From Escherichia coli (lineage in GTDB: Bacteria; Pseudomonadota; Gammaproteobacteria; Enterobacterales; Enterobacteriaceae): a DNA stretch of 64,000 bases. Under the pieces are notes generated by a model, which was given only the letters and a program-made list of their open reading frames with translations, did no database searches and was not told where the DNA came from. Below, piece after piece: positions 10,769-11,301 of this stretch; position 1 is the stretch's first letter; each line of letters begins with the position of its first letter. Where the stretch lies: assembly GCF_003334405.1 (NCBI RefSeq), contig NZ_QOWM01000001.1. One strand, written 5' to 3'. The position numbers and the translations under genes are program-made.

Positions 10769-11301
10769 CTCAGGAAGGAAAAAGTGGCTTTCGCGCACCT
10801 TAGGTCAGACAAGGTGTCCGGGAAAGTCAATGGGAAGAGAAAAATTTGTTAAAAATAACTGTTCGGCGATTTCTTGAACGGCATAATAGGTTAGATAAAT
10901 TGATATAGATGGTTTATTAATCTTTTTGCTAATGATTGCAAAAATTGATCTAAGCACGAGTCATCACATAATCTGATGTATCAGTTGTGGTCAATATATA
11001 AGCGAATGTAAGAGATTGTTGATGGCGAAATGGTTGTTTTCTATTCGGTTATTGTTAAATGCTAAGCCATTTTGTTAATTTACCTTATATTATAAGAAAA
11101 TTATTCATGACTTTAATTTAGTTTAAATATAACTGATATCCCTGAAGGTTATTAACTTGAATTATGACGCACTGATATTATTCATCAAATAATAACAAAA
11201 TAGCCATTGCACCGGGTTGAACAATTTACAAAAGAAAGATATTCCATATCGTATAATGCGATTAAATACGCCGTCTTATAGAAAATGATGGTTAGATTAA
11301 T

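Follow-up and report, generated by a model that had tools for sequence, protein, structure and literature searches.

We analyzed a window of 64,000 nt, by which we mean the whole stretch of Escherichia coli DNA that contains the divergent genes nrdA and yfaL. The window is nearly identical to the DNA of E. coli K-12 MG1655 in reverse orientation, with window positions near the locus equal to 2,355,471 minus the U00096.3 position. For coordinates given on U00096.2, we took the offset to U00096.3 to be +1978, which fits the gene labels and the HusR boxes. In comparison with MG1655, 3,193 bp (U00096.3 2,330,085-2,333,277) are absent at window position 22192/22193, inside the yfaS pseudogene; since the flanks of this gap are 99.97-100% identical, the window comes from a strain closely related to K-12 rather than from MG1655. 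The genes and features of the locus are the following:

8321-10606, minus strand: nrdA, the class Ia ribonucleotide reductase alpha subunit; 761-aa ORF with its ATG at 10606, divergent neighbour of yfaL.
10607-10885, no strand: ancestral DNA upstream of nrdA, comprising its 5' UTR, its promoter and a regulatory region; 42% G+C; alignable with the spacers between ubiG and nrdA in yfaL-less genera.
10683-10701, in the nrdA upstream region: conserved CCCCCTATATATAGTG block, kept in more than 20 genera.
10734-10877, plus strand: ypaB (b4605), a 47-aa ORF annotated in NC_000913.3; shares sequence with the nrdA promoter and, over 38 nt, with the start of 10840-11301.
10760-10768, minus strand: TTATCCACA, which we take to be a DnaA box.
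10806-10821, inside ypaB: HusR box CAGACAAGGTGTCCGG (box sequence from PMC12844172).
10850-11100, no strand: predicted intrinsically bent segment (wedge model), with local bend peaks at ~10845, 10898 and 10944.
10868-10880: conserved GATTTCTTGAACG, the last block common to yfaL-less genera.
10886-11301, no strand: yfaL-linked AT-rich block; 28.2% G+C, with promoter-like pairs on both strands.
~10895-10920, no strand: FNR ChIP-seq peak assigned to nrdAB; centre at U00096.2 2,342,585, or window ~10908 (PMC3688515).
10945-10972, plus strand: promoter-like TTGATC-16-CATAAT from a hexamer scan, facing yfaL; its -35 hexamer holds the GATC at 10947-10950.
11225-11252, plus strand: promoter-like TTTACA-16-TATCGT, a consensus match and the candidate closest to the yfaL ATG.
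11286-11347, no strand: ChIP-exo footprints P16/P17, over the yfaL start codon (PMC4918353 supplement).
11302-15054, plus strand: yfaL (ehaC), an AIDA-I family autotransporter adhesin; 1250-aa ORF, NCBIfam NF007285 equivalog.

The first 1000 nt of nrdA are 100% identical to MG1655 nrdA (b2234), and YfaL scores 2812 bits against NCBIfam NF007285 (YfaL/EhaC), for which the cut-off is 1459. The AT-richness extends into yfaL, whose first 900 nt have 44.7% G+C vs 53.5% in the remainder. Near the FNR peak, a TTGAT half-site with a poor second half-site can be read at 10900-10904, and the TTACAA of the 11225-11252 candidate is kept in all aligned alleles. In the PMC4918353 supplement, footprints P16 and P17 (U00096.2 2342146-2342173 and 2342169-2342207) are labelled "Upstream" and come without an expression change. 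The regulator behind them is most likely GadX, because the other targets in the same table match the GadX targets of the main text.

The first-pass annotation had singled out 10840-11301 as a leader of yfaL that is far richer in A+T than the surrounding genes and carries long A/T tracts, as is typical of curved, H-NS-silenced regions that precede cryptic adhesin genes. The compositional part of this description is borne out: with 28.4% G+C vs 51.9% for the 64-kb window, these 462 nt form the lowest stretch of their length in the window. Across all 63,539 windows of 462 nt (mean G+C 51.9%, sd 4.8%), the stretch stands well under the average (z = -4.9); the minimum starts exactly at 10840, and equally low windows make up 0.005%. 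Both of the tracts that had been quoted are present (TTAAATATAACTGATATC at 11123 and AATAATAACAAAATAG at 11188). The stretch contains 22 A/T runs of at least 6 nt, the largest number elsewhere among the sampled 462-nt windows being 21, as well as 10 A4+/T4+ tracts (1.8% tail). Its TpA frequency is 11.7% vs a mean of 4.4% (0.1% tail), and this combination of A+T far above average with high TpA is what is expected of an H-NS-silenced xenogeneic region. A fairer null for G+C is given by the 20 intergenic spacers of at least 100 nt within the window, which have a median of 46% and an sd of 9%. Among these, the whole nrdA-yfaL spacer (10607-11301, 695 nt, 33.8% G+C) is the second lowest; because three or four others are similar, it lies at the low end without being unique, and the real outlier is its core of ~28% G+C. 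A second AT-rich spacer of the window, at 38789-39526 (34% G+C, core of 31% at 38947-39408, curvature peak at 38960), runs from rcsD to a 367-aa ORF that we take to be ompC, and would thus be the micF/ompC control region. The micF/ompC spacer is flagged "HNS" in PMC3946193, as is the spacer between yfaL and nrdA.

To place this DNA in a wider taxonomic context, we compared 80 Enterobacterales genomes in the region that precedes nrdA, the ubiG-nrdA spacer being measurable in 68 of them. The large majority of the 80 loci have ubiG as the immediate upstream neighbour of nrdA, both genes pointing the same way; where the spacer was measurable (68 loci), its median length is 435 bp. A divergent yfaL homologue is found between ubiG and nrdA in only 5 of the 80 loci, namely L006 (labelled E. 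coli), E. albertii, a Pseudocitrobacter MAG, Enterobacteriaceae RIT691 and Rahnella bonaserana, and both yfaL and the AT-rich block are absent from all 68 loci with a measurable spacer. In a MAFFT alignment, homology to the yfaL-less spacers ends at ~10885, ~280 bp upstream of the nrdA ATG, and a blastn search of the spacer against the closest yfaL-less genera gave no match, with the low-complexity filter either on or off. Identity to L006 is 95% over nrdA and 95% over 10607-10885, then falls to 55% over 10886-11301 and stands at 73% over yfaL; E. albertii and Pseudocitrobacter show the same collapse at ~10885. Because homology and identity both break at this point, 10840-11301 is a composite. 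In other words, the view that it is upstream DNA of yfaL holds for the ~415 nt of 10886-11301, but 10840-10885 is ancestral nrdA upstream sequence together with the end of ypaB. The patchy presence of yfaL and the sharp boundary at ~10885 are signs of horizontal acquisition, as expected of an H-NS-silenced xenogeneic region.

The position of this boundary bears on a reading in which the block is mainly a distal regulatory region of the essential nrdAB operon, serving Fis, IciA/ArgP, FNR, H-NS and cell-cycle control, with its proximity to yfaL being incidental. AT-rich upstream DNA reportedly matters for nrd regulation (a result attributed to Jacobson and Fuchs, 1998), which favours such a reading, and the A-tract segment 10840-10860 and the conserved element at 10868-10880 are kept together with nrdA. 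The FNR ChIP peak at ~10908 has been assigned to nrdAB (PMC3688515), and reviews state that H-NS represses the class Ia ribonucleotide reductase genes and binds the nrdA promoter, which also supports a role directed at nrdAB. However, genera without yfaL have nothing equivalent beyond ~10885 and make do with a spacer of ~435 bp, and the block follows the yfaL allele rather than nrdA (in L006, 55% identity for the block vs 95% for nrdA). We consider it a real possibility, though an unlikely one, that nrdAB control is the main function of the block; as a secondary role, nrdAB regulation is likely for the first 50-100 bp, but not for the whole 415 bp.

The block itself is strongly diverged, with 48-55% identity in L006, E. 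albertii and Pseudocitrobacter, where the adjacent coding DNA has 61-73%. Its G+C content nonetheless stays at 28.2-28.9% in the window and in these three lineages, within spacers of ~700 bp each; its composition and length are thus conserved while its sequence diverges. The upstream blocks of RIT691 and Rahnella show only a moderate AT shift (41-43% G+C), and identical columns across the five lineages amount to 25%. A stringent search for conserved motifs in the five lineages found none in the block that reaches 9 of 12 identical positions, and only the ancestral 10868-10880 passed. Within E. coli, the block is universal, with at least 80% of the spacer covered in 5424 of 5426 complete genomes, though it varies more than nrdA: in a B2 strain the block is 85% identical vs 98% for nrdA.

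The coding sequence of yfaL varies as well. Compared over window 11302-12801, yfaL is hypervariable: a B2 strain has 73% nucleotide identity in codons ~168-500 vs 98% in nrdA, and protein identity is 78% for L006 and E. albertii. The annotations of BEN2908 and 23CRST009 give yfaL as a pseudogene that an internal stop interrupts. RIT691 and Rahnella bonaserana carry a YfaL homologue of 52-53% protein identity at the same ubiG-nrdA site (~1560-5340 of the loci compared); their congeners lack yfaL, which implies either repeated loss or repeated site-specific gain. In at least 2 E. coli strains, IS1 has inserted independently within some tens of bp of the yfaL ATG, on its upstream side (at 1721-2418 of the locus compared from NZ_AP045766.1, and at 3228-3925 of that from NZ_CP049353.1, where the match to the window stops at ~11278). 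Because IS1 favours AT-rich targets, it is conceivable that such insertions into the AT-rich block could activate yfaL or disrupt it further.

The AT-rich spacer, its occupancy by H-NS and its nature as a promoter island have already been published. Table 1 of Panyukov and Ozoline 2013 (PMC3661553) contains, as 1 of 78 E. coli islands, the entry "2342143_534 yfaL(-)/ypaB(-)", which after conversion with +1978 corresponds to window ~10817-11350, essentially 10840-11301. The entry carries the H-NS code "A", meaning that the region is listed as bound in all three ChIP studies compared there (Grainger, Kahramanoglou and Oshima), and foreign-gene predictors flag the gene at this island (PMC3661553). 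In Shimada et al. 2014 (PMC3946193), the spacer between yfaL and nrdA carries an "HNS" flag and contains a peak for RpoD holoenzyme by genomic SELEX in vitro; the constitutive yfaL promoter predicted there (TTGATC-16-CATAAT) is the same site as our scan match at 10945-10972. This evidence for H-NS occupancy is second-hand: it consists of an entry in a summary table and of a flag in the table of a SELEX study, not of ChIP tracks. The published occupancy and the "HNS" flag agree with the first-pass description of an H-NS-bound region preceding a cryptic adhesin gene, and from this occupancy we infer that H-NS is the cause of the silence of yfaL. As for expression of the gene, the biofilm phenotype of yfaL was obtained with a constitutive promoter inserted just upstream of its ATG (PMC3764049).

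The Ozoline laboratory uses the term promoter island for regions that span 300 bp or more and in which predicted start points are extremely dense on both strands. Counting promoter-like hexamer pairs on both strands of 10886-11301 (416 bp), we found 9, vs 3.2 ± 1.5 in dinucleotide-preserving shuffles. By this crude hexamer scan, which is not PlatProm, the block has the density of a promoter island, and because the 9 pairs exceed what shuffles of the same composition contain, its promoter-island character amounts to more than AT-richness. The 10-bp high-affinity H-NS motif behaves differently: the block contains 8 matches of at least 8/10, the best being TAGATAAATT at 10892 (9/10), vs 5.7 ± 2.4 in shuffles, i.e., the motif is not enriched in the block.

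To assess curvature, we used a dinucleotide wedge model based on Bolshoy/Trifonov angles and expressed the bend as the ratio of end-to-end to contour length; on synthetic DNA, the code gave 0.36 for phased A6 tracts, 0.98 for out-of-phase tracts and 0.93 for random sequence. In this model, 10840-11301 has a ratio of 0.549, a value in the 1.3% tail of the window; relative to dinucleotide shuffles of the same block (0.81 ± 0.10), it is lower by 2.6 sd. The predicted bend is localised, with 200-nt windows within 10850-11100 having ratios of 0.694-0.725 (rank 0.001-0.002 among all 200-nt windows), and the yfaL-proximal ~250 bp (11050-11300) predicted to be straight in spite of being AT-rich. Of the curvature suggested in the first-pass description, the model thus supports a strong bend at 10850-11100 but none in the yfaL-proximal half. 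A 10-11 bp periodicity of AA/TT is absent over the block, and its mean local curvature is no higher than that of its own shuffles.

These results also allow us to weigh the reading that the block is a functionless spacer, drifted to high A+T by mutational bias, to which H-NS binds passively and on which selection does not act. The divergence between allele classes is indeed near saturation, no motif is strongly conserved, and composition explains the count of H-NS motifs. Against drift, G+C is held at 28-29% in four diverged alleles, ~17 points under the median spacer of the window, length is held at ~700 bp, and both the promoter-like sites and the global bend exceed those of shuffled sequences. 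We regard drift as a rather improbable explanation.

The term "leader" implies a transcribed region, and a long yfaL 5' leader with a post-transcriptional role (a structured RNA, a riboswitch or a leader peptide) would be a further reading of the same DNA. Transcription from the promoter-like site at 10945-10972 would give a yfaL 5' UTR of ~320 nt, which is the point in its favour. However, an Rfam scan of 10300-11700 at E<=1 gave no match, the RNA of 10980-11320, a putative leader of 341 nt, has an unremarkable predicted fold (z = -0.63), no small ORF of more than 24 aa lies wholly inside the block, and the 25% of identical columns across lineages speak against a conserved leader. The TSS-distance column reads "-" for yfaL in the PMC4918353 supplement, the SMRT-Cappable-seq supplements contain no mention of yfaL or ypaB, and promoter islands as a class bind RNA polymerase yet produce almost no long RNA (PMC3661553). 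With an ordinary fold, no RNA family match and no TSS recorded in these supplements, 10886-11301 lacks the marks of a regulatory 5' leader; the label is unsupported, and a post-transcriptional role is very unlikely.

YfaL has been described as a homologue of Ag43, and yfaL is among the differentially methylated biofilm genes, both of which would fit a phase-variation switch of the Ag43 type. Alternatively, the IS1 copies in the spacer of some strains could point to the scar of a mobile element, but these are strain-specific insertions. A switch of the agn43 type, based on Dam and OxyR, is excluded, because a single GATC (10947-10950) lies between 10400 and 12304, its flanking sites being at 10397 and 12304, and such a lone site in ~1.9 kb does not form a Dam/OxyR-type cluster. 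A search for a shared word of at least 7 nt at the two edges of the module, as a target-site duplication would leave, found none, and the block contains no transposase-like ORF. We consider a switch or a scar exceedingly improbable. GATC itself is over-represented in the window as a whole (326 sites vs 239 ± 14 in shuffles), where 10401-12303 holds one.

We favour, with a probability of roughly 80%, the explanation that yfaL belongs to a laterally acquired module and that the AT-rich stretch serves this module as its upstream region for silencing and regulation, acting through xenogeneic silencing by H-NS. In this explanation, the module would consist of yfaL and the ~415 bp of DNA with 28% G+C (10886-11301), set between ubiG and nrdA. 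The AT- and TpA-rich DNA and the distal bend at 10850-11100 would together form a high-affinity platform on which H-NS could polymerise along ~0.5 kb, between the border of the nrdA upstream region and the first codons of yfaL, these included. RNA polymerase would bind the overlapping promoter-like sites with its productive transcription quenched under H-NS, and yfaL would thereby stay cryptic in laboratory conditions. Because the block abuts the control region of nrdAB, it probably also contributes to the H-NS and FNR inputs reported for that operon. Similarly, we infer a nucleation site for H-NS in this DNA, with spread to the nrd promoter.

H-NS silences AT-rich acquired genes by xenogeneic silencing, among them K-12 adhesins such as ycgV and chaperone-usher fimbriae; cases of this kind were reportedly described by Navarre (2006), Lucchini (2006), Roux (2005) and Korea (2010). 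With such genes yfaL shares an AT-rich upstream region and an AT-shifted 5' coding region, occupancy in vivo, silence in the laboratory and a patchy distribution. Unlike the usual H-NS-silenced genes, the yfaL module abuts the promoter of an essential operon. The upstream region of nrdAB itself, with its inputs from DnaA, Fis, IciA and NrdR, includes 10840-10885, and the FNR peak and the H-NS control, which Cendra et al. are said to have described in 2013, fall in or beside the block. Genera with the same nrdA promoter architecture, which they have only as far as ~280 bp before the ATG, nevertheless lack the block 10886-11301. The agn43 (flu) region likewise lies upstream of a biofilm autotransporter adhesin of the AIDA-I type, but agn43 is controlled by a Dam/OxyR switch with a GATC cluster, whereas the yfaL spacer, with its single GATC in 1.9 kb, follows a logic of silencing. 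From the promoter islands (Shavkunov et al. 2009; PMC3661553), of which it is one, the yfaL spacer shows no substantive difference: both have dense, overlapping promoter-like sites in AT-rich, H-NS-bound DNA at a gene flagged as foreign. To the published island we add that its nrdA-side edge coincides with the insertion boundary of yfaL, and that only its distal half is predicted to be bent.

What is added here (the boundary of the module, a composition kept without sequence, and a localised bend) is incremental. The value of the locus is modest, and lies in providing a worked example of an acquired adhesin that arrived with, or gained, its own AT-rich silencing platform, which is kept in composition and length and not in sequence. 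It also raises the side question of whether a module placed beside an essential operon rewired the regulation of nrdAB. We think it possible, if on balance doubtful, that the control of nrdAB in Escherichia by H-NS, and in part that by FNR, is a by-product of the insertion of yfaL. If so, the acquired AT-rich block would act as a nucleation platform reaching the nrd promoter, with selection holding it at ~29% G+C and ~415 bp, and relatives in which ubiG abuts nrdA would be without this layer of nrdAB control.

Finally, the nrdA promoter region yielded some observations of its own. The coding status of ypaB is doubtful, and it is unlikely to be a genuine gene: no NCBIfam family matches it, and it is cut to 17 aa in E. 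albertii, though intact in L006 (labelled E. coli) and in Pseudocitrobacter. Its DNA is that of the nrdA promoter, and it goes without annotation in B2 strains; a ypaB "mRNA" has been reported as induced by HusR (PMC12844172) and by AZT. A segment of ~115 bp (window 10730-10844) has ~78%-identical copies on many E. coli plasmids, at 235 plasmid places, one example being plasmid p2 of strain EC19 (3001-3115 of the locus compared). The copies include the DnaA box and TTGCAAGTGCATAACTTTGTGGATAACTC, and the plasmid copy lies just upstream of a homologue of DNA polymerase III theta, followed by HumD, an arrangement that looks like a hot/humD module of the phage P1 type. The promoter-proximal part of the nrdA upstream DNA, aligned over window 10607-10800, differs between two groups of genera. 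In Citrobacter, Enterobacter, Raoultella and Kluyvera, an inverted pair, TTATCCACAG...GTGGATAA, is found between the CCCCCTA(T/C)AT(A/G)TAGT box and the nrdA ATG; Escherichia and Pseudocitrobacter instead have a single TTATCCACA upstream of this conserved box.
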